Made by a program: the position numbers and the translations under genes. Positions 12,587 to 44,002 of a stretch of 64,000 nt of DNA are shown piece after piece. The stretch is from a virus. How positions within the stretch are numbered: the first letter of the stretch is position 1; each line of letters opens with the position of its first letter. Below the pieces are notes generated by a model. The model was not told the DNA's origin. It saw only the letters and a program-made list of their open reading frames with translations, and did no database searches. Where the stretch lies: the IMG/VR virus record IMGVR_UViG_3300018080_000100; one strand, given 5' to 3'.

Positions 12587-12648
12587 AGCTACTCCTGGTT
12601 AAGGTCCGCCATGATCGTTGCACGCGCATAGGTACCTCCTTATGCATG

Positions 12649-12669
12649 AAAAAAGCCCCTTTCGGGGCT
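12649..12669 (-). terminator. rho-independent terminator
   Basis: GC hairpin AGCCCC-TTTC-GGGGCT followed, on the minus strand, by TTTTTT; lies downstream of the tRNA array. Confidence 0.55.
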
Positions 12670-12670
12670 A

Positions 12671-12744
12671 GGTGGCTGGAGGGATTTGAACCCTGCTCCT
12701 TCAGCGCCACAAGCTGACGTGCTGCCTGGTACACCACAGCCACA
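12671..12744 (-). tRNA. tRNA-His (anticodon GTG), extra 5' G
   Basis: Hand-folded cloverleaf: acceptor GTGGCTG/CAGCCAC, T-loop TTCAAAT, anticodon loop TTGTGGC. Confidence 0.7.
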
Positions 12745-12745
12745 G

Positions 12746-12816
12746 TGGCCCCACTAGGAATCGAACCTAGACCTGACGGTTAAGAGCCGCCTGCTCGACC
12801 TTCGAGCTACGGAGCC
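12746..12816 (-). tRNA. tRNA-Lys (CTT)
   Basis: Cloverleaf with T-arm CTAGG-TTCGATT-CCTAG and anticodon loop CTCTTAA. Confidence 0.65.
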
Positions 12817-12838
12817 AATTTTGTTCATATGATCAAGA

Positions 12839-12909
12839 TCCGCCACACGGAGTTGAACCGTGTCCTCCGGCTTACCATGCCGGGCTCGTACCAGTCCGAG
12901 CTCTGGCGG
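12839..12909 (-). tRNA. tRNA-Thr (GGT)
   Basis: T-arm CACGG-TTCAACT-CCGTG; anticodon arm CCGGC-ATGGTAA-GCCGG. Confidence 0.6.
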
Positions 12910-12923
12910 AAAACAGCCCTAAG

Positions 12924-12994
12924 ATCCGAGGGCAGGAATCGAACCCGCACCTGCTGAGTACGAAACAGCTGTTCTGCCGTTAAACTACCCCGGA
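12924..12994 (-). tRNA. tRNA-Thr (CGT)
   Basis: Acceptor TCCGGGG/CCTCGGA; T-loop TTCGATT; anticodon loop TTCGTAC. Confidence 0.55.
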
Positions 12995-13122
12995 TCATCA
13001 GCGGAAGAGTATCCAAAACATGCCCAACACCACGATCCCAACAATGACATCGCGCGCTACGTCAGGCCAGGTGGTGGCCTCCGCAAGCAACATTTCCATG
13101 ACAAACCTCCTTTGTTAGTCAG

Positions 13123-13193
13123 TGGTCCCACTAGGAATCGAACCTAGACCCGCTGCTTAAAAGGCAGCAGCTCGACCTTCGAGCTATAGGACC
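13123..13193 (-). tRNA. tRNA-Lys (TTT)
   Basis: Paralog of the CTT tRNA; anticodon arm GCTGC-CTTTTAA-GCAGC. Confidence 0.65.
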
Positions 13194-13198
13194 GTAAG

Positions 13199-13276
13199 TA
13201 GCGGTGGACGGATTCGAACCGCATCTTCCGCAGGGGCTACCCACGGCGCTCTACCTGACGACTACCGACCCCGCAG
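13199..13276 (-). tRNA. tRNA-like element (isotype unresolved, possibly degenerate)
   Basis: Good T-loop GGTTCGAATCC, but acceptor and anticodon pairing could not be completed by hand. Confidence 0.3.
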
Positions 13277-13437
13277 CCCGTGGATGTGACGTCACCATCC
13301 GGGACCCGATCGCGCAGACGAATGTTCACGCCCTCGACGTGTACTTTGTCTCAGACGCTTCATTTGAGCTACACCGCCATAAGACGGCCGCTAGGACCAC
13401 ATCTTTCCTGAATGCGTTATTTCAGCACGCAGCCAAG

Positions 13438-13509
13438 TCGCTCCGCTCGGGGTCGAACCGAGACCACTGGATCATGACTCCAGCACACTGCCAATTATGT
13501 TACGGAGCA
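13438..13509 (-). tRNA. tRNA-Met (CAT)
   Basis: Anticodon arm CTGGA-GTCATGA-TCCAG; T-arm CTCGG-TTCGACC-CCGAG. Confidence 0.6.
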
Positions 13510-13510
13510 G

Positions 13511-13580
13511 TCGGATGCCTGGGTTTCGAACCCAGCTCGGGGGCCTTATAAGAGTCCCCTAGGTCCCAAGCCTGCATCCA
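13511..13580 (-). tRNA. tRNA-like element with non-canonical anticodon arm
   Basis: Acceptor TGGATGC/GCATCCG and T-arm CTGGG-TTCGAAA-CCCAG are fine, but the anticodon region is a GGGG/CCCC stem with a 12-nt loop. Confidence 0.35.
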
Positions 13581-14129
13581 TCATAGCTTCACAGCCCAAG
13601 TCGTGTCCTCGAATACGTCGACGCGGTCCGCGAATTCCCTATCTACTGCTTTCATCACGCCACGGAAGCGCTTGTCGTAGTCATGCCCGGCGATGAACCG
13701 CGTGCAATGCGGCAGCCACAGCTTGATTTGCCGTGACACAGCTGCGTCCGTATGCACAGCGTCGATGTACACGCCGTCGACCTTACCGATGAACGGTTCA
13801 ACGTCCATGTCGAAGGCGTTTATCAGCATGACGTTACGCTGATTGTACGTGTTCTTGTGGGCTTGCGCATGCGCCCAGCGCATGTCGCGCGGATGCATCT
13901 CCGCACCGACACAGTCGCCAAGCGTTTTGTCGATTGTTAGTTCCCACGGATCGACGCCGAGCACGTAGTCGAAATACTTGGCGTGGACTAGTGTGCTTTC
14001 GCCCTGCCATACGCCCAATTCGACCAATGTTCCACCGCCGTACTTACGGCCAAACGCGTGCAGGCCTTCCGTTAGGCCGGGCGCGGCGCGCATGCACAAT
14101 CTAGGATCGTCGAGCTTGTTCTTTGTCAT
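13581..14129 (-). CDS. class I SAM-dependent methyltransferase-like protein
   Basis: 182 aa; motif-I-like LVELGVWQGEST and acidic motif II; found within the sugar-modification cluster. Confidence 0.45.
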   Translation of the reverse strand: MTKNKLDDPRLCMRAAPGLTEGLHAFGRKYGGGTLVELGVWQGESTLVHAKYFDYVLGVDPWELTIDKTLGDCVGAEMHPRDMRWAHAQAHKNTYNQRNVMLINAFDMDVEPFIGKVDGVYIDAVHTDAAVSRQIKLWLPHCTRFIAGHDYDKRFRGVMKAVDREFADRVDVFEDTTWAVKL

Positions 14130-14141
14130 TTGTTCCTCCAG

Positions 14142-14215
14142 TAGGCGATGCAGGACTTGAACCTGCCGCCTCCACCGTGTCGAGGTGGCGCTCTGGCCTG
14201 ATGAGCTAATCGCCT
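14142..14215 (-). tRNA. tRNA (anticodon GAC, Val) - tentative
   Basis: Acceptor AGGCGAT/ATCGCCT; D-arm GCTC…GAGC; T-loop TTCAAGT; anticodon loop TCGACAC has an unusual C33. Confidence 0.45.
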
Positions 14216-14318
14216 GCGGATCCGGTAGGGGCTTGCCCGGGGCGGGGCCCCTAGGCCGGACTTCGAACCCGTATTATCGCTCCTCCATTCCCCTAGTTGT
14301 TAAGGAGTCCCGGATCAG
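14216..14318 (-). other. tRNA-like remnant (T-arm-like GGGTTCGAAGTCC without a closable acceptor stem)
   Basis: A T-loop motif is present but no cloverleaf could be closed; possible pseudo-tRNA or long-arm tRNA that was not resolved. Confidence 0.2.
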
Positions 14319-14392
14319 TCTGGGTAGCAAGATTTGAACTTGCGTCCTCGCGGTCCCGAACCGCGCGCTCTGCCAGGCTGAGCTACACCCAG
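14319..14392 (-). tRNA. tRNA-Pro (CGG)
   Basis: Anticodon arm CGCGG-TTCGGGA-CCGCG; T-arm GCAAG-TTCAAAT-CTTGC. Confidence 0.65.
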
Positions 14393-14393
14393 A

Positions 14394-14984
14394 TTACAAT
14401 TCTTGTATGCGTTCCTGCTTGAGCCACTTGCGTAGCAGCGCTTGCTCGGAATGCGCGTCGTGTCCTTTGAAGTTCGCATTGTACCCGAAGCAGGCGATCT
14501 TTATCGTCCAGTACGTGTACGCCGGATTGTCGACCAACCACTTCAAGATCCAAACGCCCGCGCTCGGATTCACGTTCTGCTCTACACCGAAGTTGCGTTT
14601 GTATCGCCGTACCCACGCGCAATGGCGCCTGTCAACGAATTCTACGCGCGATTCTTTGAGCGCCGGATAGCGTTTGAAGAACGGACAAAGGTCCATCTTG
14701 GTTAACTGGCTAGGCCGGAGCTTTTCGCGCTGTGACGGCATAATCCACAGATGCGGCTGCGCTTTCACGACTTCTGGGACGAGCCTAAGGCGCCCCATCG
14801 CTATCAACTCTCCATGGCCTTTCGCTGCACCACGTAGCGCCAGGTGTGTCGTACGTTTGCCGATCAGCCCGGTCTCGTAGAACGGTGTCGTCTGGAAGCG
14901 CGCAACAGCGTCCGCCGCATCTATAGCTGCGGACATGTCTTCGGACGGCTTGCTGTTGCCGACTACGACGATGGTTTTTGACAT
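14394..14984 (-). CDS. GT42/Maf-like nonulosonic-acid (sialyl) transferase, paralog 1
   Basis: 196 aa; N-terminal IVVVGNSKPS (compare CstII VIIAGNGPS); C-terminal KGHDAHSEQALLRKWL (compare CstII IGHSKNTDIKALEFL, catalytic His); sits beside the CMP-NulO synthetase. Confidence 0.5.
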   Translation of the reverse strand: MSKTIVVVGNSKPSEDMSAAIDAADAVARFQTTPFYETGLIGKRTTHLALRGAAKGHGELIAMGRLRLVPEVVKAQPHLWIMPSQREKLRPSQLTKMDLCPFFKRYPALKESRVEFVDRRHCAWVRRYKRNFGVEQNVNPSAGVWILKWLVDNPAYTYWTIKIACFGYNANFKGHDAHSEQALLRKWLKQERIQEL

Positions 14985-15628
14985 AATCCGGCTCCAACGT
15001 GCTCCGCAAGCTCCCAGTCAGCCTCGGTGTCAATGTCGACCAGTTCGGTGCCGCGCACTTCTTGGAACCATGGATGGAAACCGATGCGCCGTCCGTGCTC
15101 ACGCATGAAAGTGCGCCGAAGAATCCAGAAGCCATCCGACTCAATGAAGATCGGCGCTTGCGTTTGCGTCGGCGGACATGTACGTGGGTCGTGGTTGATT
15201 GACTGGTAGTGGCAGTTCCACAGACGTCCGCGGACGGCTTGCATGCTGGCGGCCGAATCAAAACCGCTAGCGATGACAGCATTCATGGCGGTGCGGATAC
15301 TGTCCACGCGAATGAACGGCGACGTCGCGTTCTTGATGCAGCACCACGTCGCTTTCTCTGGAACGGCCGCCAGCATATCGCGAAACATTCTGTTGCTGTC
15401 CTGTATCTCCATGACGGTCCGCTCGGGATACAGCACGACGTCGGACGGGACGTGATCCATGATGGCGGGTTCGCCGTAGACGCCGATCTCGTCGATAAGA
15501 CCCTCTTCACGCAGCTGGCGTAGCGGTTCCAGCGTCCATTCGTACAGCGGGCGTCCGCACAGTTCGCGGAAGTTCTTGCCGGGCACACGCTCGCTGCGCA
15601 TCTTCAGGGGTGTGACAGCTATTCGCAT
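14963..15628 (-). CDS. acylneuraminate (nonulosonic acid) cytidylyltransferase, CMP-NeuAc synthetase family
   Basis: 221 aa; IAVTPLKMRSERVPGKNFRELCGRPLYEWT matches the CTP_transf_3 P-loop (IIPARGGSKGIPxKN…L.GKPL); the …TSPF… motif is also conserved. Confidence 0.65.
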   Translation of the reverse strand: MRIAVTPLKMRSERVPGKNFRELCGRPLYEWTLEPLRQLREEGLIDEIGVYGEPAIMDHVPSDVVLYPERTVMEIQDSNRMFRDMLAAVPEKATWCCIKNATSPFIRVDSIRTAMNAVIASGFDSAASMQAVRGRLWNCHYQSINHDPRTCPPTQTQAPIFIESDGFWILRRTFMREHGRRIGFHPWFQEVRGTELVDIDTEADWELAEHVGAGLCQKPSS

Positions 15629-16254
15629 GGTATGTCTCCCATGTTACCGATCGGGTGCAACCGGCCGCCACGCACCCAACGTTTCAGCAGCTCACGCTCC
15701 AGGCCTTCTGGATGATGACCGCGAAAACCGCCCGTGAAGCCGGTAACCTGTATGGTATACTCTGCAAACTCCGTTTGCGATAGCAGCCATTGTAGCACCC
15801 ATAAGCCGCCCGTTGGCTCCACATGGCCTTTGAAGCGCCGTCGCCTCCAAAAGTATGCTTTCAGCGCCGTACGTGCTGACATATCCACGAAGCGTATCGG
15901 CAGCTCGCTCATCTGCGGATAACGTGCGAAGAAGGGCGCAACCTCGACGTGATGCAGATTGCACCACGACAACTTACGCGGCGCATGCATGCCCCAGCCG
16001 TCGCTGCGCATGACCCACAGCTCTGGTCTGGCAGCTAGTGCCTCCTGCGATAGGGGCAGCTTGCCTGTACTCAGATCTTTGCCAGTCCCTGTCGAGGCGC
16101 CGCGGAATGCCAACGCCGTTGTCTTAGTGCCGGTCAGCCCTAACGGGTAGTAGAAAGCCATCTGGAAGCGTACGACTTCGTCAGCGTCGTCGATGATCTC
16201 CGACAGGTCGACAGTCGGCTCAGCGTTTCCGACGACTACCATAGTCTTGGCCAT
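15619..16254 (-). CDS. GT42/Maf-like nonulosonic-acid transferase, paralog 2
   Basis: Start refined to ATG (MAKTMVVVGN) with GGAGG 5 nt upstream; C-terminal GHHPEGLERELLKRW; ~30% identical to paralog 1. Confidence 0.5.
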   Translation of the reverse strand: MAKTMVVVGNAEPTVDLSEIIDDADEVVRFQMAFYYPLGLTGTKTTALAFRGASTGTGKDLSTGKLPLSQEALAARPELWVMRSDGWGMHAPRKLSWCNLHHVEVAPFFARYPQMSELPIRFVDMSARTALKAYFWRRRRFKGHVEPTGGLWVLQWLLSQTEFAEYTIQVTGFTGGFRGHHPEGLERELLKRWVRGGRLHPIGNMGDIPCE

Positions 16255-16271
16255 GACGCCTCCGTGCGAGT

Positions 16272-16345
16272 GCGCGCAGTCAGGATTCGAACCTGCATTT
16301 CTCCGTTGGCTACACTTAGGTTCCGGCAGCGCTACCTTTCCCGTT
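16272..16345 (-). tRNA. tRNA-like element (unresolved)
   Basis: T-loop CAGGTTCGAATCCTG present; acceptor pairing not found by hand. Confidence 0.25.
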
Positions 16346-16387
16346 CTCGCCCGCGGTTGACTGTCCAATCAGCCTATACGCGCGAAG

Positions 16388-16461
16388 TCTAAGTGGCAGG
16401 ATTCGAACCTGCGGCCTTCTGGCCCCCAGCCAGACGCTCTACCAGACTGAGCTACACTCAG
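16388..16461 (-). tRNA. tRNA-Pro (GGG)
   Basis: Acceptor CTGAGTG/CACTTAG; anticodon arm TCTGG-CTGGGGG-CCAGA. Confidence 0.6.
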
Positions 16462-17078
16462 ATTAGCCAATCGTTTTCATCCTGCATACGCTGGATTTTC
16501 TTGGTCTGCTTGATATGCCAGTTGTAGTGGCACATATAGCGATTCTCGCTCAGCTGACTGTTCAGCTGGTACCACCCAGACGGGTACATCAGCGGGTCCA
16601 GCATGACCATGTCCACGACATCAGGCTCTTTCCGCAACCTGTGCTGGATACGCATCTGATCGTCGCAGTATTGGCGGCGCCGGCGGTACTTAGGCAGGTT
16701 CGCAGGGTCCAGCAGGTCCAGCGTCGCTGGCGTCGGTGCCGCGGCGAAGAATCCTGCGCACACCTTGTTGTCGCCGTCCGGACAGTCACGTTGGAAGACG
16801 ATGTCGTGGCCTTCAAGCGTGCGCTCCAAATCCTTACGCGGATCACGGCGGAAAACGACGTCGACGTCGGTCCAGATGACGACCTCGCCTTTCAGAAGCT
16901 CCTTGCGTACGAGCCTGACCTTCTGCATCATCATCTGTTCGAACAGCTCGGTACCGTACGGCTCGCCGTGCACCTGCATATCGTGGATCTCGATGCCAAC
17001 GCCGATGCGCTTCAACGACGCGAGCATGTTTTGCACCAGCGGACCCACTCTTTCGGTGCACATCGAAATCAATTTCAT
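16458..17078 (-). CDS. nucleotide-diphospho-sugar glycosyltransferase (GT-A-like, DxD)
   Basis: Start refined to MKLISM… just before the tRNA; WTDVDVVF DxD motif; resembles Nucleotid_trans/GT77-like viral glycosyltransferases. Confidence 0.45.
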   Translation of the reverse strand: MKLISMCTERVGPLVQNMLASLKRIGVGIEIHDMQVHGEPYGTELFEQMMMQKVRLVRKELLKGEVVIWTDVDVVFRRDPRKDLERTLEGHDIVFQRDCPDGDNKVCAGFFAAAPTPATLDLLDPANLPKYRRRRQYCDDQMRIQHRLRKEPDVVDMVMLDPLMYPSGWYQLNSQLSENRYMCHYNWHIKQTKKIQRMQDENDWLI

Positions 17079-17085
17079 AGGTGAA

Positions 17086-17157
17086 GTACCCTCGGTAGGA
17101 TTCGAACCCACGTGGAACGGTGTAGAAAACCGTGGCCTATCCTCTAGGCTACGAGGG
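17086..17157 (-). tRNA. tRNA-Arg (TCT)
   Basis: Anticodon arm ACGGT-TTTCTAC-ACCGT; T-loop TTCGAAT. Confidence 0.65.
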
Positions 17158-17167
17158 CATTATATCA

Positions 17168-17239
17168 GTCACCCCACCAGGAGTCGAACCTGGGCCTGCG
17201 GCTTCGGAGGCCGCCGTCTTGTCCTCTCGACTATGGGGT
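17168..17239 (-). tRNA. tRNA-Arg (CCG)
   Basis: Anticodon arm GCGGC-CTCCGAA-GCCGC; T-arm CCAGG-TTCGACT-CCTGG. Confidence 0.6.
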
Positions 17240-17367
17240 GTGAACGCGACGGCCCGGACCTCTATTTCAGTACGGCCTGGGATCATTGCGGGTGTCTAAG
17301 GTTACGCCGTCGAGTGCGTGACGAAACGACGACTCCCACTCCAGTACGTCACGATACTCCGCCGCGA

Positions 17368-17440
17368 GCAGCCCCGGCAGGATTCGAACCTGCATTAACC
17401 TGGCTTAGGACACCAGTGCCTTTCCGTTAGGCGGCGGGAC
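17368..17440 (-). tRNA. tRNA-Arg (CCT)
   Basis: Acceptor AGTCCCG/CGGGGCT; anticodon arm CTGGT-GTCCTAA-GCCAG. Confidence 0.6.
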
Positions 17441-17448
17441 TGAGGCCG

Positions 17449-18177
17449 TTAGGCCAACGCTTCTGAAACTTCAAGGCGCTTGCCCTTGAAATTGGGTTCG
17501 TTCCAGACCTCCAGGTAGAGATCCATCCACTCGCCGCTCTTCGACGTCGGTATGCGCCATATCAGGAACGGATCGTGTGTGCGCGACAGTTCGCAGATAT
17601 GGAACGTGCCGAAATGACACCGCTTCGAGATGTCTACTGCGGACTGCAATGCGAACTCGGGCACAGGGCGCTCGTAGCCCTTGAGTGGCACAATGCCCCA
17701 GTCTGGCGCACCAATATTCATCGCGATGAATGCAATGACGAACGACACACACGTCGGCAGCCACGCCCAGCACCATGTCGCCCAGACATACGTGGGTATA
17801 ACACCCCCGCCGAGGAACATACAGAGAGACACGATGCCAGCGAACAACGTGGCCAATGACCCGCACACGAACACCGCGCACGTGACCCTGTCGAGCAGCC
17901 AGAATGCGCCACCCCAGCCGTAGGCCGACAGCGCCAGCGTCTTGATCTTGTACCGGTTGACGGACTTCGGATCGAACGGCCGGATGTCCAACTCTTCCAG
18001 CACAGCGATTGCTTCGCATTTGCGCTGATGTTCCACACCCAACGCGCCTGCTTTGTCGCGCAGCGGCTTGTAACCAAGTCGCACATGCGCTTCCTCTCCA
18101 AGCGACGGCGAAACGTCGCACTCTTGCGGCCGGATAACGGTCTCTGGCGGCACACGCACCAATGTAGTGCTACTCAC
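17449..18177 (-). CDS. integral membrane protein
   Basis: 242 aa with 3-4 TM helices in the middle (WGGAFWLLDRV…LFAGIVSLCMFLGGGVIPTYVWATWCWAWLPTCVSFVIAFIAM). Confidence 0.4.
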   Translation of the reverse strand: MSSTTLVRVPPETVIRPQECDVSPSLGEEAHVRLGYKPLRDKAGALGVEHQRKCEAIAVLEELDIRPFDPKSVNRYKIKTLALSAYGWGGAFWLLDRVTCAVFVCGSLATLFAGIVSLCMFLGGGVIPTYVWATWCWAWLPTCVSFVIAFIAMNIGAPDWGIVPLKGYERPVPEFALQSAVDISKRCHFGTFHICELSRTHDPFLIWRIPTSKSGEWMDLYLEVWNEPNFKGKRLEVSEALA

Positions 18178-18210
18178 TGCAGACTCCTTCCTTTAGAACA
18201 AGTGACCAAG

Positions 18211-18282
18211 TACGGGTGCAGGGAATCGAACCCTAGACTTCTGGTTGGAAGCCAGATGTGTTGCCACTAGCACCACACCCGC
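18211..18282 (-). tRNA. tRNA-Gly (TCC)
   Basis: Anticodon arm TCTGG-CTTCCAA-CCAGA; T-loop TTCGATT. Confidence 0.6.
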
Positions 18283-18663
18283 ATAAGAGGAGCAAGAACT
18301 ACTGACCCTAAGCTACTGACCGGGGGCGACCCGGTCGCACTCTCAGGGCAACACGAGTATATCTCTCCGGAGCCATCCGGAGCCTTCACGCACTACTTCG
18401 TCCTCAACCGCACGCGAATGCGGTACCCGCTGGCAAACGGGGCTCCTCAGTACGGCGCCGGAGGGTCGAACTCCAACCTCGACGTTGGCAACGTCGCGTG
18501 CACAGCCGGTACACTAGCGCCGCAAAAAGCAGAACGGGCTACTCACGCCGCGGCCCAGCTGGAAGCTACCCAGCCGGGGTGCGCGGATGTAGGGCTCCGG
18601 ACAGATGTATCACGGTACCCATCAACACCGCCGGGCAACCCAGCTTCCCCGCTCTGCTGTACG

Positions 18664-19407
18664 TTACTCTTGATCGCTGTATTGTATCGGTTCCTCGGGG
18701 CACGTACAGGGATGCGCGTCTCGGATTGCGCTTGCCGACGAGTTCTTCTGACAATCAGCATTGCGAGGATCATGCCGCTTCGGGATGAACGTAACTCTGT
18801 CACACGTGCATGGCTTGAGCGTGCCATGCGACAACGCCTTAGCGCCGTTCCAGGGACAATCCTCGTTATCAGGGTTGTGATTCTGGATGTACGCGTTCGG
18901 CAGCGCTGCGACCGGCGTTACCTTAGGGCACGTGCAGCCGGCTGGTTTGTCCTCCGTTGCAGAGTTCCACAGGCAGTCCGGGTTGTCCGGATCGTGGATG
19001 CGCCCGTCGGTGCCGATCGTCCGCGGTTGTACGTCGCCCGGCCACTCCCACACAAAGTTCTGTGTGAATCCGCCATGCGTCTTGCGCTTCATGGCTGCAG
19101 CTTGCTCAGGATCGAGATAGCGGTGCCACTGTTGCCCTACGTAGCGTAACGCCTCGTAGACGTCGCCGATCTCGCGCTCGATAGCCTTGAACACTTCGGC
19201 ACGTTTCGGATCCAAGTCTTGTCGTACAGGCAAGCGCTGGTACTCGCGAATGGCGTCCAGCAACTCTTGCGCCTCTTCGACTACCTTCTCTGCGCCGAGC
19301 AGCTGTCTGCTCTCGCCGGGTGGAATCTGCCGGATCGTTCCGTTGAGCGGACCCTCGCCGGCTAGTCGTCTACCGGGCACAAAGTCCCGGACCAGTTTGC
19401 TTCCCAT
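18664..19407 (-). CDS. MazG/HisE-like NTP pyrophosphohydrolase domain protein with C-terminal Cys-repeat region
   Basis: N-terminal ~90 aa resemble all-alpha NTP-PPase; C-terminus has three repeats of DP(D/R)N(P/A)DC…CTC(P/D). Confidence 0.4.
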   Translation of the reverse strand: MGSKLVRDFVPGRRLAGEGPLNGTIRQIPPGESRQLLGAEKVVEEAQELLDAIREYQRLPVRQDLDPKRAEVFKAIEREIGDVYEALRYVGQQWHRYLDPEQAAAMKRKTHGGFTQNFVWEWPGDVQPRTIGTDGRIHDPDNPDCLWNSATEDKPAGCTCPKVTPVAALPNAYIQNHNPDNEDCPWNGAKALSHGTLKPCTCDRVTFIPKRHDPRNADCQKNSSASAIRDAHPCTCPEEPIQYSDQE

Positions 19408-19437
19408 CGTATCTCCTTTTTGATCATGAGATCAATT

Positions 19438-19716
19438 TTACCAGCGGATTTCGGTGAACGGCCGCGAGCACGGATGCCCGGGGTCTGGGTCGTCATGCCG
19501 AATCACCTCGAAGCCGTCTTGGCGAAGCCGCATGAACACGGCGCGCTCCTCTGCCGGCGTCGGATGCTTTTTGAAGTTTGTGAACGGATTCATTATGCTG
19601 CTGCGGCCTTGCAGCGCAGCGCCTTTGATCCGTTCGTAGATAGACGCCAGGATCGGTTCGATCACCGGCCCTTGCAGGTTCTTGCGCGTGATGTCGCGCG
19701 CTTCATCAGCTTTCAT
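19438..19716 (-). CDS. hypothetical protein
   Basis: 92-aa ORF. Confidence 0.3.
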   Translation of the reverse strand: MKADEARDITRKNLQGPVIEPILASIYERIKGAALQGRSSIMNPFTNFKKHPTPAEERAVFMRLRQDGFEVIRHDDPDPGHPCSRPFTEIRW

Positions 19717-20020
19717 CGTCGTCTCCGTGCATGGCCGACAGCAAACCGAGCAGCTCGAAGACGCGCTTGGCGTCTATGGGCTTATCGGGCGTTAGCTGTT
19801 CGGGCTGGATTTTCTCGTCGCCGAAGTAGCTGTAGCCGTGGGCGACGTCCGGACTCAATGTCAGCTTGGTTTCGACCCACTTGTCGAAATCGTCGCCGAG
19901 TTCGTCTTCGGCTTCTGCGAGCAGCTTGCCGAGTTCATGGGCCCGCAGCAGTAACGCTCGGCCCATGCGCATCACACCCAGATGGTGCTGATGGATCTTG
20001 CCTATGGTTTCTTCAGACAT
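19706..20020 (-). CDS. hypothetical acidic protein
   Basis: Start refined to ATG overlapping the upstream stop (ATGA coupling); 104 aa. Confidence 0.35.
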   Translation of the reverse strand: MSEETIGKIHQHHLGVMRMGRALLLRAHELGKLLAEAEDELGDDFDKWVETKLTLSPDVAHGYSYFGDEKIQPEQLTPDKPIDAKRVFELLGLLSAMHGDDDES

Positions 20021-20280
20021 CACTTTCCTTTCTCTGCTAGCTCTGCTAGCGTATCGCCGTGACAGGCCTGCGGGGCGCAATAACAACCAAGCACTTTGCC
20101 GCGCAGTGTTGGCAAAAGCCATAGCAAATGCGGCTGCGTTTGCAACCATGCTCGATATTTGGCAATCACCTCTGCGCGTGTACCATCTGGGCCAATACGA
20201 AAAGGATTGCCCCAGATGCTCCCACGTCCGATATAGATATCGAACGGCTCGCGTTTGCAATGTACGACACGTGTAGTCAT
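20020..20280 (-). CDS. DUF4326-family protein
   Basis: Start refined to MTTRVVHCKREPFDIYIGRGS…WGNPF…LGCYCAP..CH immediately downstream of tRNA-Ser; DUF4326 signature residues. Confidence 0.5.
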   Translation of the reverse strand: MTTRVVHCKREPFDIYIGRGSIWGNPFRIGPDGTRAEVIAKYRAWLQTQPHLLWLLPTLRGKVLGCYCAPQACHGDTLAELAEKGK

Positions 20281-20282
20281 AG

Positions 20283-20852: not shown

Positions 20853-20857
20853 GTCAG

Positions 20858-21399: not shown

Positions 21400-21413
21400 G
21401 GCTTCCTTTCGAG

Positions 21414-37241: not shown

Positions 37242-37580
37242 CCGGGTGTGCTAGGACTGATCCGACTTGTTGACTTCTCCGTTTAATCCGTATGCGTGAA
37301 TCTCTCGTAAAAGGCGTACTTCATTATACTACCGGGGCTCGAGCGCCGATTTGCCAGGCCGGCTCGGCGAGGCCTTTGTAGGGCACCTGCCACTGGCAGA
37401 TGCCAAGCGCCCCGGGGGGAGTTGATACCCCATCTCCTAGTAGGTAAGGATAGCTACGGAATTCGATTCAACAAGTGACAACACGGGTGATCTTGAGCGA
37501 TAGCTTGAGTCTGAACGTGAAGTGCGCATAGGGTTCCGTTGATGGTGACGCTCTAGCAATTGAGCTACCCCACAGGAAAG

Positions 37581-37652
37581 ATCCGGCGGTGGGATTCGAA
37601 CCCACGTGGGCTGGTTTACAAAACCAGTGCATGGCCTCTCTGCCACACCGGA
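37581..37652 (-). tRNA. tRNA-Thr (TGT)
   Basis: Anticodon arm CTGGT-TTTGTAA-ACCAG; T-arm GTGGG-TTCGAAT-CCCAC. Confidence 0.6.
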
Positions 37653-37754
37653 GTAAGTTGTGGGGGGAGGACTCCAACCTCCAACCTTCACCTATGGAAC
37701 CTGTATCATGCGCGTTTTTGAGTCTGAGTCTGAACTTGTCGCTATGTAAAGCTG

Positions 37755-38519
37755 CTACGCGGTCTGCGCCGGAGCAGCAGCTTTCGCTCCTTGCGTAATG
37801 AAGTCGAAGAGCGGCCGGGCGATCTCGAAGCTGTCGGTCTGCGCCTGGTTGGCCTGTTCGCGGGCCAGCCGGATGCCTTCGATCAGCTTGTCGACGCGCT
37901 CCAGCATCTTCTCCTTCTCGTCTGCCGGTATTCTACCCGACATGAGCACAGTTTCCCACTCACCTACGACGATGTCCTCGTCGAAGCGCTCGGTCTGTGC
38001 AGGGTGCTCGGTGGTGGCTTCGTACTTCACCAGTACCTGTGGGACTTTCCGCGTCCGGACCTTGCTTGTCTTCCCCGTCACGAAGCAGTTGCGGTTGGGG
38101 TCGTGGGTCCAGTTTTCGGCGGAGTCCAGTACCGGCAGATGTGCTAGGAATGTGCGCACGTCGGTGACGTGCTTTTCCAGGAACAGCAAGCTGGTGACCG
38201 GTACGTCGGCCAGGATCAGGGCGCCATCCACCTTGATGTCGCCCTTGGCCGTGCAGTTGGCTGCGTCCTGCGTCGCGGTGACGTTCAGGAGCTTGGTCCA
38301 ATGCTTGACGGCCTTCTTGAGGCAGCTTTCCCAGGTGCACTGGATGTTCTTGTGCTCCGGCGGCAGCTGAGGCTCGTCCTCGCGCTTGGATTTGTAGGTC
38401 CGCACCAGTCCGTCGAACAAGGCAGGTTTCTGGACCTGCTTGTAGATGGTGGTGACGGCTTCCTGCGTCCGGGTTCGTTGCCCGTTCGCAACAGCGATGA
38501 TCTGATTCAGTTTGGGCAT
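37755..38519 (-). CDS. hypothetical protein
   Basis: 254-aa ORF; no motif. Confidence 0.4.
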   Translation of the reverse strand: MPKLNQIIAVANGQRTRTQEAVTTIYKQVQKPALFDGLVRTYKSKREDEPQLPPEHKNIQCTWESCLKKAVKHWTKLLNVTATQDAANCTAKGDIKVDGALILADVPVTSLLFLEKHVTDVRTFLAHLPVLDSAENWTHDPNRNCFVTGKTSKVRTRKVPQVLVKYEATTEHPAQTERFDEDIVVGEWETVLMSGRIPADEKEKMLERVDKLIEGIRLAREQANQAQTDSFEIARPLFDFITQGAKAAAPAQTA

Positions 38520-38582
38520 CCTTTGCCTCCTCCTTTGAATCTGAAACTAACGGTCCTAATTTTGATCTCATGATCAAAAAGC

Positions 38583-38651
38583 AGTCCGGCAGGGAGTCGA
38601 ACCCCATCCTGCTGATCCAGAGTCAGCCGTGCCGCCAATACACCACCGGAC
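38583..38651 (-). tRNA. tRNA-Gln (CTG)
   Basis: Anticodon arm GCTGA-CTCTGGA-TCAGC. Confidence 0.55.
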
Positions 38652-38713
38652 AATATGACGCCACCGTCGGAACGCCGACGGTGGCGGTACTCTTTCTGCA
38701 CATGGCAGATGAG

Positions 38714-39034
38714 CTAAGCAGCAGTCAGTTCGGCCTGGACGTCTTCCATAAGGCCGGCGAGCTCCTGCATACAAGCGCTGACGTACTCTGTGATACTCTC
38801 GGTATCGGTACCGTCGACCTCGATGCCGTCAAGGCGCTCCGCGGCAGCTTGGCCGCGCGCGATGACGATCTCGGTCATCCGATCGGACTCCAGATCATAC
38901 TGGATGTCGCACTTCATTCTTCCAAAGCCAGGGGCATCGGTGCTCATGTGGAGCATGGCCTTCTTGCCGCCCGGGGCCTTGAACGAACACTTCAACTTCG
39001 CCTTCTTGGGCATGTAGCCCTCCTCCAGCCCCAT
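38714..39034 (-). CDS. hypothetical protein
   Basis: 106-aa ORF. Confidence 0.35.
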   Translation of the reverse strand: MGLEEGYMPKKAKLKCSFKAPGGKKAMLHMSTDAPGFGRMKCDIQYDLESDRMTEIVIARGQAAAERLDGIEVDGTDTESITEYVSACMQELAGLMEDVQAELTAA

Positions 39035-39132
39035 GCGTTACGCCCCCTTATCAAAGACGCCAAGCATGAAAAACAGCATGACGACTACACACGCAATCCA
39101 GATCGTGTCGTCCATCAGTTCCTCCTTCTGAG

Positions 39133-39203
39133 CAGCCCAACAGGGAGTCGAACCCCGTCCTGCAGGTCCAAAACCTGTCGTGCAGCCGTTACACCATTGG
39201 GCA
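39133..39203 (-). tRNA. tRNA-Gln (TTG)
   Basis: Loop TTTTGGA; one acceptor mismatch at 1-72. Confidence 0.5.
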
Positions 39204-39477
39204 ATAATGTGAGGCGCGTCGCTTGTGCCGATGCTGCAATCTCGGAATACGGCGCTGAGGCATAAGTAGCTTACTGTCCTCCCTCACCAGTACCGCGTAC
39301 GGGTTTCGATCCCGTCTGATCAGGTTGAAAGCCTGATGACCTCACCAGAAGTCGAACGCGGCCTGTGCGCCCCCGACCACAATTGGTCCGACCACGCGGC
39401 TTAGCGGGGGCATCGTAGGTGGCTACTCCACGGACTCGTAATGGTCTCCTTATCTGCAGGTGAACCACAAGTGTAAG

Positions 39478-39548
39478 CTGCTCGGCTAGGAGTCGAACCT
39501 AGACCACTCGGTTAACAGCCGAGCGCTCTGCCTCAGAGCTACCGAGCA
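39478..39548 (-). tRNA. tRNA-Asn (GTT)
   Basis: Anticodon arm CTCGG-CTGTTAA-CCGAG; T-arm CTAGG-TTCGACT-CCTAG. Confidence 0.6.
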
Positions 39549-39552
39549 AAAG

Positions 39553-39625
39553 CAGGCACCCAGGGAATCGAACCCCGCCACGCGGATTTGGAGTCCGCAT
39601 CGCCAGCCTTGGAACATTGGCACCT
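39553..39625 (-). tRNA. tRNA-Trp (CCA)
   Basis: Anticodon arm GCGGA-CTCCAAA-TCCGC. Confidence 0.55.
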
Positions 39626-40025
39626 GTAACAGTGAGTAGCGCAGACTCGAACACCGAGCAGGGGTTGACATACCGATGCGCGACTGGTGCTTGAGGAAAA
39701 CGTAGGTGGGTATAGACCTTCCTGGATGTGCCAACTGCATACGGCCTGGCCCAGAGCCACCTGACTCTTTCCGACTCACTGAGCGCCCCGACGGGGTTAT
39801 GATCCCCGTACTCCGGATCGACAGTCCGGCGTTTTTCCGATTGAAACTACCGGGGCGTTTGGAGGCGCGCTGACGCAGTACGCCAAGCCACCTCCTCTAG
39901 GTTGGCAGCTACACGGATGTGACACATCCGCTCACATGCGCATACCAGGTCGCAACTGCGCTCCGCCCCGACATTGGGGGAACGGTCTACGTGTCACCAG
40001 TTGCTCACCCACTTCGAAGTATCGT

Positions 40026-40223
40026 TCACCGACCCTTTTTCGTCAAGGGCTCGGGCTTCTTGGCCTTCTTCTTCGGTACACTCGCTTTGACGACGTCCTT
40101 GCCGCACACCGTGCAGCGATGGCCAGCGCCAGTAGCGGTTACAGTCTCGTTGCAAACTCGTCTCTTGTGCCCATACTGCGCGTCCTGGTACGGATGGTCG
40201 CACAGACATTCCTTGATTGGCAT
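40026..40223 (-). CDS. small zinc-binding protein
   Basis: Start refined to MPIKECLCDH… (AAGGA upstream); CxC…C…CxxC; Lys-rich tail. Confidence 0.4.
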   Translation of the reverse strand: MPIKECLCDHPYQDAQYGHKRRVCNETVTATGAGHRCTVCGKDVVKASVPKKKAKKPEPLTKKGR

Positions 40224-40331
40224 GTGTTTCCTTTCGGTGTCATACGAAAACAGCGCAGCGGAAACTGAGCTCCGCTGCGCTGTTAAGTGTCTCAAACAAA
40301 GCTGGCGGAGGTTAGCCCGCCAGCATTATGC

Positions 40332-40994
40332 TTAGACGGGCGTCTCGGTGATCCGGTTGGGCGCATTTTCTGGCCCGCGCGGTTCCATCGAGGCTTCGAT
40401 CTGCGCCACGTCGACGCGGTTGTCGTTGCCTGCGAAGGTCATCAGGTACGCGAGGATCTGTTGGTACAGACCGTAAACGCGCAGCGAGTCGTGTCGGGTG
40501 ATGAACCGCGAACGCTCGCGCGAGTTGAGTCGCGTCCAGGTTACGATCACTGTGTCGACGGCCGACAACAGGATCCGGCCGTTGCCGCTCATGTTGAGCT
40601 GGCTGTTCACCGGGATGTCGACGTCCTGGCCCGAGAAGTCCCAAGGGAGTTGGTACATCTGCGTGGCCGGCATCTGGATGTCGTCGCCACCAAACGGATT
40701 GGCAGCATCGGTGATGTCCGCAGTTGCGTCGATCGCCGTAGCGATCTTGTCGCCGAGATCAGCACCGTCTGGGTTATGAGTAACCCGGCGACGCCAGCGA
40801 TCAGCGTTGACAAGCAGCTGCAGAAAATGGTCTCTCGACGGGTCGTCGAGACCGCCTCGGTCGCGGAGATCTTCACTGTGGACAATCTCCGAGCGCAGCA
40901 ACATCAACGGCTGCAGACCGGCGGCGATGTGATGGTTTCGGCATTCCGTGATTACGTTACGGAATTGTTCGACGCCAGGGTCACCTACTGGCAT
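40332..40994 (-). CDS. hypothetical protein
   Basis: 220-aa ORF. Confidence 0.4.
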   Translation of the reverse strand: MPVGDPGVEQFRNVITECRNHHIAAGLQPLMLLRSEIVHSEDLRDRGGLDDPSRDHFLQLLVNADRWRRRVTHNPDGADLGDKIATAIDATADITDAANPFGGDDIQMPATQMYQLPWDFSGQDVDIPVNSQLNMSGNGRILLSAVDTVIVTWTRLNSRERSRFITRHDSLRVYGLYQQILAYLMTFAGNDNRVDVAQIEASMEPRGPENAPNRITETPV

Positions 40995-42754
40995 GACTGG
41001 TCTCCTTTGGTGGGAGTTGAATGATAGGTTGCTGCCGGCGCCATTTCATTGAAGCGTCTCAGCAGCGTGTCCTTCATTATACGCGCCCAGTCATTCTCAG
41101 GTCCAGAGGGCTCTTGGTCAATTTTCTTGTCAAGTTCGTCGAGAGTAAGTCGGCCGATAAGTGCATCAAGTATCGGCGAACGTCCTTCGAGCTCCGAAAG
41201 TCGTATAAATTCCTGTGCTTCCGAGATGTCTCGGGGCACTGTGTCGTGGGTGGGAAACGTATCGGGCTCGGAAGCCCCTCCTTGCCCAGGCGGCGTCACG
41301 GGCGGGTCAACAGGCGGTACGACAGGCGGATCTGTGGGCGGTTCGATGGGCGTAACAGGCGGCAAATCAGGCAGTTTTGGCGCAGGCTTGCCGCGGAACC
41401 AGCAGAACGCCTTGTAGATACCAAAGCCGAGCGCCAGCAATCCGCCACCACCTGCCGATCCTGTCAGTAGCCACATGAGCGCCTGCTGCACCGACGGCTT
41501 TACCATATCCCAGTTTGACGGTTCGTCCGGCTCGGTTACCGTGGGCGGCGGATCGTTATTTGTCGGCGGCTCTACAGGCGGCGTAACCGGAGGGTCAACT
41601 GGCGGCGTAACCGGAGGGTCAACTGGCGGCGTAACTGGGGGTTGCACAGGTGGTTCGACCGGCGGCTGTACAGGTGGCGTAACCGGAGGCGTAACTGGCG
41701 GTTCAACAGGAGGTTCAACAGGCGGTTCAACCGGTGGCACCACTGGCGGCACTACAGGCGGTGGCTCAGCTGGCGGCGCAACTGGTGGCGTCACTGGTGG
41801 CACTACAGGCGGTGGCTCGACCGGCGGTGTCACCGGAGGCGTGACAGGCGGCTGTACAGGTGGCGTAACCGGAGGCTCGACCGGGGGCGTAACCGGAGGC
41901 GTGACAGGTGGCGTAACTGGGGGCACGACAGGCGGCTGTACAGGCGGCTGTATTGGCACCAGTGGCGGCCGCGGCTTTGGCGGCTGCGGGTACGGCGGGA
42001 GAATGAACTTCAACAGCGCACGCACACGCGGAAAGTAAGGTCCGCAGCAGCAGTTACCGTCAGTGCCGGTGATCAACCCTACGACTTCACCGCGCGACGT
42101 GTAGATCGGTCCGCCGCTCATGCCGCTGATTGCCGGCCCTCGGAACTCGATGACCGAGAGCGTGCGCCCTTGATCGAACGATAGCCATTTGCTGAACGTC
42201 CCCTTTGTGACGCGGTATGTAGTATTCATCGCCCAGCCGGACGCCCAATATATCTCGCCTTGCCTGGGCGGGCCTTTTGCGAAGCGCACCGGCTTGATAC
42301 CCGGATCGTCGATCTCGACGACGGCTACATCATAGAGATGGTTGTAGCGCAGCATTCGTGCCTTGAGCATCTTGCCGTTGATCAGCGTGACCGTCACAAC
42401 GGCCCCAGGCTTGTAGCCATGGGCGCAGGTGATCACGTGCGCTTTACCGTCCTTCTGTGCTGCAATAAAGCCGCTGCCGGCCAGTTCGCCGAATGCTACC
42501 TTGACCACCTGTTCGCAGGGTGGTGCTGCTGGAAGTGCTGGCGGCGCTGGTGCGGCCCAGGACTGCGATGGCGATGCGCGCCATTGGGTTTCGTGCGGCA
42601 GCTGCATCAGCAGCCCGCGGTAATCCTGCCGGCTAGGCGAATTGCGCTCTTCCCAGGGAACTACTTCATAGATGTCTACAGAACGGGGCTGGCCCGCAGC
42701 TACGGTTGGCAGCAGTAGGCATGCCAACAGGCAGAAAAGCGTACAGCATCTCAT
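40985..42754 (-). CDS. secreted, membrane-anchored trypsin-like (S1) serine protease with long PPVx repeat linker
   Basis: Start refined to MRCCTLFCLLACLLLPTVAAG (signal peptide; AAGGAG upstream). Catalytic His in ITCAHG and Ser in GMSGGPI. About 45 tandem (T/V/E/Q)PPV units, a TM helix (LMWLLTGSAGGGGLLALGFGIYKAFCWF), then a C-terminal domain. Confidence 0.6.
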   Translation of the reverse strand: MRCCTLFCLLACLLLPTVAAGQPRSVDIYEVVPWEERNSPSRQDYRGLLMQLPHETQWRASPSQSWAAPAPPALPAAPPCEQVVKVAFGELAGSGFIAAQKDGKAHVITCAHGYKPGAVVTVTLINGKMLKARMLRYNHLYDVAVVEIDDPGIKPVRFAKGPPRQGEIYWASGWAMNTTYRVTKGTFSKWLSFDQGRTLSVIEFRGPAISGMSGGPIYTSRGEVVGLITGTDGNCCCGPYFPRVRALLKFILPPYPQPPKPRPPLVPIQPPVQPPVVPPVTPPVTPPVTPPVEPPVTPPVQPPVTPPVTPPVEPPPVVPPVTPPVAPPAEPPPVVPPVVPPVEPPVEPPVEPPVTPPVTPPVQPPVEPPVQPPVTPPVDPPVTPPVDPPVTPPVEPPTNNDPPPTVTEPDEPSNWDMVKPSVQQALMWLLTGSAGGGGLLALGFGIYKAFCWFRGKPAPKLPDLPPVTPIEPPTDPPVVPPVDPPVTPPGQGGASEPDTFPTHDTVPRDISEAQEFIRLSELEGRSPILDALIGRLTLDELDKKIDQEPSGPENDWARIMKDTLLRRFNEMAPAATYHSTPTKGDQSCQ

Positions 42755-42973
42755 CGGGGACTCCTTTGCTGAGAGACGTGCATATTCTCTCATCAGACAC
42801 CGACGGAGTGGCGCTGTCAAGATCCTTGGGAAGTGGTAGCCCTGTGAGTCGAACACAGCACAGCGCGGTTATCAGCCGTGCTTGGGCAACCGGCCCTCGA
42901 CTACCATGGCCCTGGGCCCGGAGGCCCAGGGAGGACTTTCCATTATTTGGGATTGTCCGTTTCTCGTCCAGAC

Positions 42974-43861
42974 CTATCGGCGTCCGCCCGGCTGAGCGTT
43001 TGCCTGCGTCTCAATCGACTGCTGCAGCGTGGCCAGGGCCTGACGCTGCGAGGAGGCCTCGACAGCCGACGTGGCGATACCGCGGGCATCCTCGCGCGCT
43101 GTGGCGAGTTGTGCCTCGACGTTCTCCAGCTGCTTCTCCAGTGCGCCAATACGGGCCATCAGCGCCTGCTGTTCGGCGTTCGCCAGCTGCGCTGCGGCTT
43201 CGGCGTCCTTCTTGAGCATGGCCTTCTCGTGGGAGAACGCCTGGCCCAGCGACTTGGTGACCTCGGCCTTGGCCGTCTCGACGGCCTCCTCGATCTCGGC
43301 CGGGAGGTTCTCGACCTGAGCCTCGAGATCGGTCATCTTCGTTTCGCGCTCTTCCACGGCCTCGATGCGCTCGGCCAGGGACTTGGAAACGTCTTCCATG
43401 CGGATGCGCTCCTTGCGCTGCCGCTCCTCAGACTCCGCTTCGAACGCCGTGCGTGCGCGGTCGTTGCGCTGCTGCCGATCGTAATCGTGCTGCTCCTGTT
43501 CGCGAGCCCACGCTTCGTCGCGCTCGGCCTGCTCGTCCTGCCACTCCTTGCGGCGCTTCCGAGACTTGTCCTTCGCGTCTTCCTCGGCCTCGTCGACCTT
43601 CTTCTTGATCTCGTCGAGGGTGTCTGCCTGAACCTCGATGTCGTGGATGTCCGCCAACTCCTCTTTCCGCGCCCCAATGGCCGTTTCCAGATTGCGAAGC
43701 TCCTCGATTTTCTCGGTCATGGTGACGCCAAGCGCGGCCAACGTACCTTGCACGTTGGTCTGTACAGTTCCGACCTGGTCAAGCACTTTCTTGACGTCGG
43801 ATTCCGACACGGCCTTGAGAGCCGCGTCCACGTCGGTTTTCTTGCGACGTGTTGCTGCCAT
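42974..43861 (-). CDS. highly charged coiled-coil protein (scaffold-like)
   Basis: 295 aa, E/K/R/A-rich heptads throughout; sits between the protease and primase genes. Confidence 0.4.
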   Translation of the reverse strand: MAATRRKKTDVDAALKAVSESDVKKVLDQVGTVQTNVQGTLAALGVTMTEKIEELRNLETAIGARKEELADIHDIEVQADTLDEIKKKVDEAEEDAKDKSRKRRKEWQDEQAERDEAWAREQEQHDYDRQQRNDRARTAFEAESEERQRKERIRMEDVSKSLAERIEAVEERETKMTDLEAQVENLPAEIEEAVETAKAEVTKSLGQAFSHEKAMLKKDAEAAAQLANAEQQALMARIGALEKQLENVEAQLATAREDARGIATSAVEASSQRQALATLQQSIETQANAQPGGRR

Positions 43862-43883
43862 GCAACATTCTCCTATAGAGACG

Positions 43884-43908
43884 AAAAAAGGCGCCCGACG
43901 TGGGCGCC
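43884..43908 (-). terminator. rho-independent terminator
   Basis: GGCGCCC-gacg-TGGGCGCC hairpin plus, on the minus strand, a T6 run; downstream of tRNA-Met. Confidence 0.5.
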
Positions 43909-43913
43909 TAAAA

Positions 43914-43987
43914 TGGGGGAGACAGGATTCGAACCTGCGGTCTTCGGCGTATGAAACCGACGGGGACGGCCGCTCCCCTACTCCCCG
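43914..43987 (-). tRNA. tRNA-Met (CAT), second copy
   Basis: Anticodon arm TCGGT-TTCATAC-GCCGA; 1-72 mismatch in the acceptor stem. Confidence 0.5.
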
Positions 43988-44002
43988 ATATGTTCTGTTA
44001 CT

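Follow-up and report, generated by a model that had tools for sequence, protein, structure and literature searches.

Can a tRNA that carries a leucine anticodon and lacks the long variable arm act as a leucine tRNA in bacterial translation? The question is raised by a 64,000-nucleotide stretch of DNA from the IMG/VR virus record IMGVR_UViG_3300018080_000100 (hereafter the window), where five tRNA genes with leucine anticodons and the short variable loop of class I (type I) tRNAs lie within 1.5 kb, inside a region that holds 39 tRNA genes. An earlier, sequence-only reading of the window had assumed that bacterial leucyl-tRNA synthetase (LeuRS) needs the long arm, and had taken the five genes for either a novel Leu-decoding family or something else. 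We find that the short Leu genes are a new example of a known, under-described kind of tRNA, present here as a complete five-isoacceptor set, and not a novel family. They are most probably five working type I leucine tRNAs, charged by the LeuRS of the host, in the near-complete tRNA set of a large phage (contig of at least 226 kb).

Folds, scaffolds and covariation of the short leucine tRNA genes

ARAGORN and Rfam agreed on the five genes, which lie where the sequence-only reading had placed them and carry the anticodons CAA, UAA, UAG, CAG and GAG that it had read (Table 1). In the ARAGORN folds all five have a variable loop of 5-6 nt and no long arm; neither program returned a long-armed fold or another anticodon for any of them, and either of these had been named beforehand as a result that would speak against that reading. 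A search pattern for short Leu tRNAs matched exactly these five sites in the window, with 0 expected from shuffles. Up to the discriminator the genes measure 73-74 nt, and each has a 7-bp acceptor stem, a normal T arm (GGUUCGAAUCC) and A73. Among the features of a canonical class II tRNA-Leu, the Leu anticodon and A73 are present and the long arm (>10 nt, with a stem) is absent; those of the type I bacterial tRNA-Leu (Leu anticodon, class I cloverleaf, variable loop of about 5 nt) are found in all five. The three tRNA-Ser genes called by ARAGORN provide an internal contrast within the same array.

The genes are built on two scaffolds. Those for CAA, UAA, CAG and GAG (75-84% pairwise identity) look like duplicates that diverged by anticodon change, with further differences at compensated stem positions, and share scaffold A, whose D region, UAGGCAAYNGGCAGACCAC, permits no more than two G-C pairs and whose C26-G44 pair lengthens the anticodon stem to 6 bp. 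The UAG gene, on scaffold B, has a regular D stem of 3 bp, so that the non-canonical D arms previously attributed to all five genes are real in four of them. Its variable loop is exactly 5 nt long; that of scaffold A counts 5 nt if C26-G44 is taken as a pair and 6 otherwise. The 2-bp D stem, one spacer and the 6-bp anticodon stem of scaffold A would stack into nine layers, the same number as in an ordinary Leu tRNA (3+1+5), and therefore a normal L shape may still be adopted. The positions that make the elbow contacts (T8, A14, the GG of GGCAGA, G53-T54-T55-C56 and A58) are invariant in 15 scaffold-A sequences, and the same positions are found in the UAG gene. In scaffold A, G10-A13 (GGCA) might also pair with U46-U49 (UGCU), which is put forward as an idea only, because both strands are invariant and give covariation nothing to act on.

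Single-sequence minimum free energy (MFE) folding was uninformative, with modest z-scores and a cloverleaf that was not always the MFE structure; for the scaffold-A fold it is the comparative evidence that counts. Across the 15 scaffold-A sequences, taken from the window and six IMG/VR contigs, 97.7% of the cells were paired and 14 of 20 pairs had changed on both sides, a score that 0 of 500 shuffles matched, and slid controls were 29-52% paired. The compensatory changes are carried by the acceptor, anticodon and T stems, and the two G-C pairs of the D stem are invariant. Scaffold-A genes are thus under purifying and compensatory selection.

Scaffold A, defined here as GGUAGGCAAYNGGCAGACCAC ... 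GAUGCU with a Leu anticodon, also circulates widely in phage-type tRNA arrays. Its D-region motif was found in 8 IMG/VR viral contigs and in at least 120 metagenome contigs. Together the 120 metagenome loci held 1,557 tRNA genes, and their median density of 4.5 per kb marks them as dense tRNA arrays. All 109 scaffold-A tRNAs from the 120 metagenome contigs carried a Leu anticodon (UAG 58, CAG 17, UAA 16, CAA 12, GAG 6). Over all fetched loci there were 104 distinct scaffold-A sequences. Their GAUGCU variable loop is invariant although the pattern used for searching did not include it, and of the 102 that extend to the discriminator 97 have A73. The scaffold was absent among 120 fetched bacterial genome loci, and a scaffold-A tRNA had no blastn match among 72,556 plasmids.

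Table 1. Coordinates and supporting calls of the features discussed, in the window and in cultured phages
Record	Feature	Position	Strand	Basis
Window	tRNA gene region of the phage	12671..43988	-	ARAGORN, Rfam
Window	type I tRNA-Leu(CAA), scaffold A, 2-bp D stem, GAUGCU, A73	23904..23978	-	ARAGORN cloverleaf; Rfam 45.3 bits
Window	type I tRNA-Leu(UAA), scaffold A	24083..24157	-	ARAGORN; Rfam 41.8 bits
Window	type I tRNA-Leu(UAG), scaffold B, 3-bp D stem, 5-nt loop AUGUU	25058..25131	-	ARAGORN; Rfam 60.2 bits
Window	type I tRNA-Leu(CAG), scaffold A	25220..25294	-	ARAGORN; Rfam 39.3 bits
Window	type I tRNA-Leu(GAG), scaffold A	25298..25372	-	ARAGORN; Rfam 43.8 bits
Window	three class II tRNA-Ser (GGA, GCU, UGA; 83-85 nt), long arm kept	20282..20940	-	ARAGORN
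Window	probable class II tRNA-Ser(CGA), between Leu(CAG) and Leu(UAG)	25137..25216	-	hand fold; Rfam tRNA-Sec model
Window	doubtful tRNA-Tyr(GUA)-like element	25825..25911	-	Rfam 29.3 bits, E=0.058
Window	terminase large subunit (gpA ATPase)	9981..11876	+	Pfam PF05876, E=1.3e-10
Window	Clp_N-domain protein, directly downstream of the Leu cluster	23030..23677	-	Pfam PF02861, E=1.7e-30
Gordonia phage Boopy	three short tRNA-Leu, 75-76 nt			record annotation
192-kb Microbacterium phage	scaffold-A-like Leu(CAG), 75 nt			
Mycobacterium phage LRRHood (Bxz1-like)	short tRNA-Leu CAG, GAG and CAA, 74-76 nt			
Erwinia phage phiEa21-4	short tRNA-Leu CAA and AAG, 77 and 78 nt including CCA	L258 594-670 and 1131-1208		
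Escherichia phage EscoHU1 (T5-like)	short tRNA-Leu(UAA), 77 nt including CCA	L257 588-664		

Leucine decoding and probable charging

Leu codons keep their standard meaning in this phage. In its ligase gene, the columns under CTG, CTC, CTT, CTA and TTG codons were 51-63% Leu in 105 homologues, compared with a background of 6% under other codons. All six Leu codons are in use, making up 614 of 7654 codons (8%) in 16 window genes, and the five anticodons together read all six. Of the two possibilities that had been left open for the short genes, Leu decoding is thus upheld by the codon meaning, the Leu-only anticodons and the resemblance to chromosomal genes described below, and the novel family is not, as such tRNAs are known in bacteria and phages.

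It is very improbable that the five are not leucine acceptors at all and instead take another amino acid or serve as decoys or tRNA-like RNAs, with Leu codons recoded or a role outside translation. Such a reading could draw on the non-canonical D arm of four members and on the failure of MFE folding alone to pick out the cloverleaf, but Leu codons stand at conserved Leu positions in the ligase, and a decoy would have no need of the five Leu anticodons that are kept in 109 of 109 copies. Nor does it agree with the strong compensatory selection on the acceptor, anticodon and T stems or with the invariance of G18G19 and the T-loop motifs. Alanine identity was ruled out by the lack of G3:U70 in the window Leu genes and serine identity by the lack of a long arm; the outcome of the codon test, the restriction to Leu anticodons and the covariation all contradict an explanation by recoding, decoys or pseudogenes.

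The assumption that bacterial LeuRS needs the long arm fails for Streptomyces coelicolor, whose single LeuRS charges a tRNALeu(CAA) that is naturally of type I and has a variable loop of 5 nt, at a kcat/Km of 6.25 compared with 14.2 s-1 uM-1 for a type II isoacceptor, or about half the efficiency (Fan, Huang, Ji & Wang, NAR 2019, PMC6614811). For E. coli tRNA-Leu, A73, A14 and tertiary pairs are listed as identity elements (PMC6614811). The window genes resemble the S. coelicolor tRNA in their Leu anticodon, the lack of an extra arm, U8-A14, G18G19, A73 and a length of about 74 nt; it is for the Streptomyces tRNA that charging was measured. With the Leu meaning of the codons kept and a tRNA-Leu of this kind already charged in vitro by a bacterial LeuRS, the suspicion of a new decoding system is removed for the window.

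Animal mitochondrial type I tRNA-Leu is likewise charged by LeuRS independently of a long arm (PMC6614811). The window genes share its short variable loop and A73 but, unlike mitochondrial tRNAs with their degenerate D/T-loop contacts, keep canonical G18G19 and GGUUCGAAUCC. Human mitochondrial tRNA-Leu is not charged by the S. coelicolor LeuRS (PMC6614811), and the two type I forms are therefore not interchangeable.

If the five genes function as we propose, they would be transcribed from the minus strand and processed, and a CCA-adding enzyme would have to supply CCA, since in the genes A73 is followed by C and not by CCA. They would be leucylated by the LeuRS of the host, an enzyme that in at least some bacterial lineages accepts a 5-nt variable loop. 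The charged tRNAs could then supplement or replace host tRNA-Leu at phage Leu codons during infection, acting within a set that would cover 19-20 amino acids. A 3' CCA is encoded by none of the window tRNA genes, unlike the scaffold-A arrays L002, L004 and L006-L008, in which GUACCA ends are encoded.

A related phage contig (L001) carries four short Leu tRNAs. Compared with 23904-25372 of the window, UAG and GAG have exchanged scaffolds at 7735-8133 of L001, where scaffold A bears UAG and scaffold B bears GAG. The scaffold-B copies of both phages have the same anticodon stem, CUAGG/CCUAG, and the GAG copy of L001 has C, not U, at position 33. Such free movement of anticodons between scaffolds is the behaviour to be expected when the synthetase, like LeuRS, does not read the anticodon.

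Short tRNA-Leu in bacteria, phages and tRNA arrays

Bacterial genomes, one per species, were scanned with a pattern specific for short Leu tRNAs. At least 120 loci were found, and among the matches listed 69 of 80 belonged to Actinomycetota, including Mycobacterium, Nocardia, Rhodococcus, Corynebacterium, Bifidobacterium, Gordonia and Arthrobacter. In most of the bacterial loci there is just one short gene, for UAA, CAA or UAG, whose D arm reads GUAGCCCAAYNGGCAGAGGCA (scaffold B); the window differs from the sampled bacteria, with their usual one short isoacceptor per locus, in that all five are short. Two contigs from metagenome-assembled genomes (MAGs) of Planctomycetota carry short Leu tRNAs beside housekeeping genes, one of them with CAG, UAA and GAG in tandem. 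In this tandem (L015 3550-3912, contig JBCCHQ010000007.1) an odd "tRNA-Tyr" of 100 nt, whose acceptor stem is poor, comes after the three genes, and the flanks (subtilase, glutamate synthase, sigma-70 factor) are chromosomal in type.

An nhmmer profile of 92 chromosomal type I Leu sequences scored the window genes at 36.6 (UAG), 28.6 (UAA), 26.7 (CAG), 23.4 (CAA) and 17.5 bits (GAG), with the best non-Leu tRNA at 22.3, so that they ranked 1st, 2nd, 3rd, 4th and 7th among all window tRNAs. Judged by its sequence, the UAG gene is the form closest to bacterial chromosomal type I tRNA-Leu, with which it shares the D-arm plan UAGNCCAAYNGGCAGAGNC. The other four differ from the chromosomal form in scaffold A, with its 2-bp D stem, 6-bp anticodon stem and invariant GAUGCU.

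A related case is a horizontally transferred tRNA cluster of Mycobacterium; the variable loop of its tRNALeu(UAG) is short, in contrast to that of the isoacceptor on the chromosome (Behra et al., BMC Evol Biol 2019, PMC6582537). The window resembles it as a dense tRNA cluster of probable phage origin with a short-loop tRNALeu(UAG), but there one isoacceptor was remarked on in a bacterial genome, and here the full isoacceptor set lies in a phage genome. In the literature searched we found nothing on the subject beyond these two studies (PMC6614811, PMC6582537). Textbooks and the 2019 charging study treat the bacterial type I tRNA-Leu as a rarity; the present scans suggest instead that it is routine in Actinomycetota chromosomes and that no other form of tRNA-Leu is as common in the phage-type arrays sampled. 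It is this breadth, together with an array-specific scaffold A whose D-region and variable-loop core is frozen, that makes the phenomenon noteworthy.

Short tRNA-Leu genes were annotated in every cultured-phage record opened, from phages of Mycobacterium, Gordonia, Microbacterium, Erwinia and E. coli (Table 1). The Leu(CAG) gene of the Microbacterium phage equals scaffold A save for two bases (GGUAGGCAACUGGACGACCAC ... GAUGCU). The window resembles Gordonia phages Boopy and Forza, LRRHood, the Microbacterium phage, phiEa21-4 and EscoHU1 in that all have phage-borne clusters with tRNA-Leu annotated at 74-78 nt. However, most of those cultured phages mix short and long Leu tRNAs or have only one to three, whereas the window has the complete five short and no long one. 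A type I query matched 300 phage records, of which 208 had one aligned place covering at least 80% of the 74-nt query, and most of the matches listed lie under features annotated as tRNA-Leu; a second type I query gave full-length, single-piece (gapless) alignments in phages of Lactobacillus, Synechococcus and Streptomyces. The class of a phage's tRNA-Leu may hint at the LeuRS, and hence the host, on which the phage depends, and short tRNA-Leu should not be treated as aberrant by annotation pipelines built to expect the long arm.

Two further observations were made in cultured phages. The enterobacterial phages EscoHU1 and phiEa21-4 have short tRNA-Leu though their hosts are textbook class II, and E. 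coli LeuRS rejects the Streptomyces type I tRNA (PMC6614811). Many cluster J mycobacteriophages (H71-H81) contain about 54 nt that match a Mycobacterium type I tRNA-Leu(CAA) over its 3' part with 96% identity; this stretch matches the attP/attB-11 site of the Hatfull laboratory, and integration of phage Gaia disrupts the tRNA-Leu-CAA gene of the host while the phage carries a tRNA-Leu-CAA of its own (PMC10865867).

A LeuRS encoded by the phage elsewhere in its genome of at least 226 kb, forming with the short tRNAs a co-evolved pair independent of the host, is improbable in our estimate. The assembled contig measures at least 226,517 bp, of which 64 kb was examined, and the competence of LeuRS for type I tRNA is lineage-specific, both of which leave space for such an enzyme. 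Very large phages, moreover, reportedly encode aminoacyl-tRNA synthetases in some cases. Still, no synthetase was found among the 29 window open reading frames (ORFs) scanned with Pfam (the ten largest, of 402-928 aa, and 19 smaller ones), and scaffold A also occurs in much smaller phages and arrays and in the cultured 192-kb Microbacterium phage. Candidate host phyla carry chromosomal type I tRNA-Leu, and because of this a competent host LeuRS is to be expected and a phage enzyme would not be needed.

In the fetched arrays the loss of the arm is specific to Leu. All 125 Ser genes there kept the long arm, as did 47 of 48 Tyr genes, and Leu was short in 247 and long in 60, a ratio biased because the loci had been chosen for holding a short Leu. 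This pattern fits the use of the long arm by the seryl- and bacterial tyrosyl-tRNA synthetases (SerRS and TyrRS) and its dispensability for LeuRS, which relies instead on A73 and the tertiary core. At least four different short-Leu scaffolds lack the long arm, and the D arm of one of them is similar to the one in ordinary type II Leu; this suggests that the arm was lost independently in several lineages. A D arm (GUGGCGCAAU..GGCAGACGCG) resembling that of ordinary class II tRNA-Leu was seen on contigs binned as Acidobacteriota MAGs (L023 1921-2411 and L053 2054-2585), whose arrays of 25-30 tRNAs in 4-8 kb hold four short Leu each.

That arm loss is a recurrent, selected property of phage-borne tRNA arrays, and not a passive copy of host tRNAs, seems to us doubtful. 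If it were true, the frozen D-region and variable-loop core of scaffold A could be a structure for charging across hosts or for escaping host factors that recognise class II tRNAs. The narrower proposal that the class I shape itself was selected, the arm having been shed to escape nucleases or other defence factors that recognise class II tRNAs while the tRNA stayed chargeable, is quite unlikely. Human Schlafen nucleases are selective for type II tRNAs; we know of no bacterial defence that targets the long arm of tRNA-Leu, nor did one turn up in this analysis. Short Leu predominates in arrays where Ser and Tyr keep their arms, the four or more armless scaffolds, one with a type II-like D arm, suggest repeated loss, and phages of type II hosts (E. 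coli, Erwinia) also have short Leu. Yet chromosomal type I tRNA-Leu occurs in Actinomycetota outside any phage context, the sampled loci are biased towards short Leu, and LeuRS tolerance together with a deletion bias acting on compact arrays would lead to an identical pattern.

Host charging of all five genes thus remains the reading we prefer, and several points weigh against it. E. coli LeuRS failed to charge the S. coelicolor type I tRNA, so that charging depends on the enzyme of the host, and both U8-A14 and the length of the variable loop matter for charging (PMC6614811). Scaffold A has a degenerate 2-bp D stem and 6 nt between the anticodon and T stems. The GAG gene falls below two non-Leu tRNAs on the chromosomal type I profile and is a weak match to it, and the short-to-long Leu ratio carries the sampling bias described above. 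Finally, the host signal is weak: the nearest cellular relatives of the window's NAD-dependent DNA ligase, at 42-44% identity, are almost all Planctomycetaceae, which may serve as a weak hint of the host.

The remaining tRNA complement and the phage context

The ARAGORN calls amount to 39 tRNA genes, which span 12671 to 43988 of the window, lie without exception on the minus strand and are interspersed with small ORFs. The Rfam tRNA model RF00005 gave 31 matches at its gathering score (29 bits) and more at E<=1. The sequence-only reading had counted about 42 canonical genes of 19 isotypes. A large complement and roughly that total were borne out, though the exact count was not, with 39 genes confirmed, one probable and one doubtful; 19 isotypes are confirmed, or 20 if Tyr is real. 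Asp and Ile, which had been reported missing, are both there, as Asp(GUC) at 39783-39856 (ARAGORN; Rfam 45.6 bits) and Ile(GAU) at 42833-42905 (ARAGORN only). Where four Thr, four Pro, one Gly and one Glu had been listed, ARAGORN gave three Thr, three Pro, two Gly and two Glu. The ARAGORN calls for Thr(GGU) at 12837, Gly(GCC) at 18450, Ser(GCU) at 20770 and Ile(GAU) at 42833 have no Rfam match at E<=1 and are the least canonical of the set.

Three of the four Ser genes previously listed were called by ARAGORN, and the fourth, Ser(CGA), is only plausible. By hand fold it has a long variable arm and G73; its sole tool support is the Rfam tRNA-Sec model (33.2 bits, E=0.0056, below gathering), and relaxed ARAGORN yields a different, odd fold. 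The Tyr gene was not confirmed. The element in question has good acceptor, anticodon and T arms, a D region of 10 nt and a variable region of 29 nt, but ARAGORN made no call there even with relaxed settings and introns allowed, and no homologous element was found in the related phage contig L001; with both results negative, it was left out of the tRNA count. A weak Rfam match to YrlA (Y RNA-like) at 37521-37713 on the minus strand (29.3 bits, gathering score 69), around tRNA-Thr(UGU) at 37580-37652, is probably just a tRNA-like module. A Ro-like RNA-binding protein is encoded beside the tRNA array of Gordonia phage Boopy.

The terminase marks the window as phage DNA, with the tRNA genes embedded among phage hallmark genes, and is 76% identical in amino acids to that of the IMG/VR contig L005. 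Besides the terminase and the ligase, the window encodes further cargo typical of large phages. An assembled contig of 226,517 bp encodes a protein identical to the ligase. By tblastn the Clp_N-domain protein has 65% identity to L001 8251-8667, adjoining the four short Leu tRNAs of that contig, so that the gene order around the Leu cluster is common to both. When the Clp_N protein was used as a query for relatives, four viral contigs came up that have no Leu tRNAs nearby, and these were uninformative on how the cluster arose. The AAA ATPase (57074-58780), searched as a protein, matched only related large phage contigs that form a clade and gave no host signal. A 12-kb part of the window had no megablast match among 50,697 phage records, and the phage therefore has no close deposited relative.

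Huge phages (>200 kb) are said to carry tens of tRNA genes that cover nearly all amino acids. The window phage is like them in its near-complete tRNA set and in one protein with homologues of 39% identity in LR756500, LR756501 and LR756503, though its similarity to huge phages is limited to such distant protein matches; the literature searched held no statement on the class of huge-phage Leu tRNAs. The protein is encoded by an 845-aa ORF (29126-31663, minus strand) with matches to the Major Vault Protein shoulder (E=7e-23) and vault-repeat domains, and its homologues lie in uncultured huge-phage records of 462-735 kb; it is a vault-like or SPFH-like protein conserved among very large phages. 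Among the tRNA genes are also cargo genes for a radical-SAM enzyme (34123-34908), a NodZ-like fucosyltransferase (33008-34084), a sulfotransferase (11873-12586) and a cytidylyltransferase (14963-15628), all on the minus strand; such carbohydrate or modification functions are unusual for a phage.

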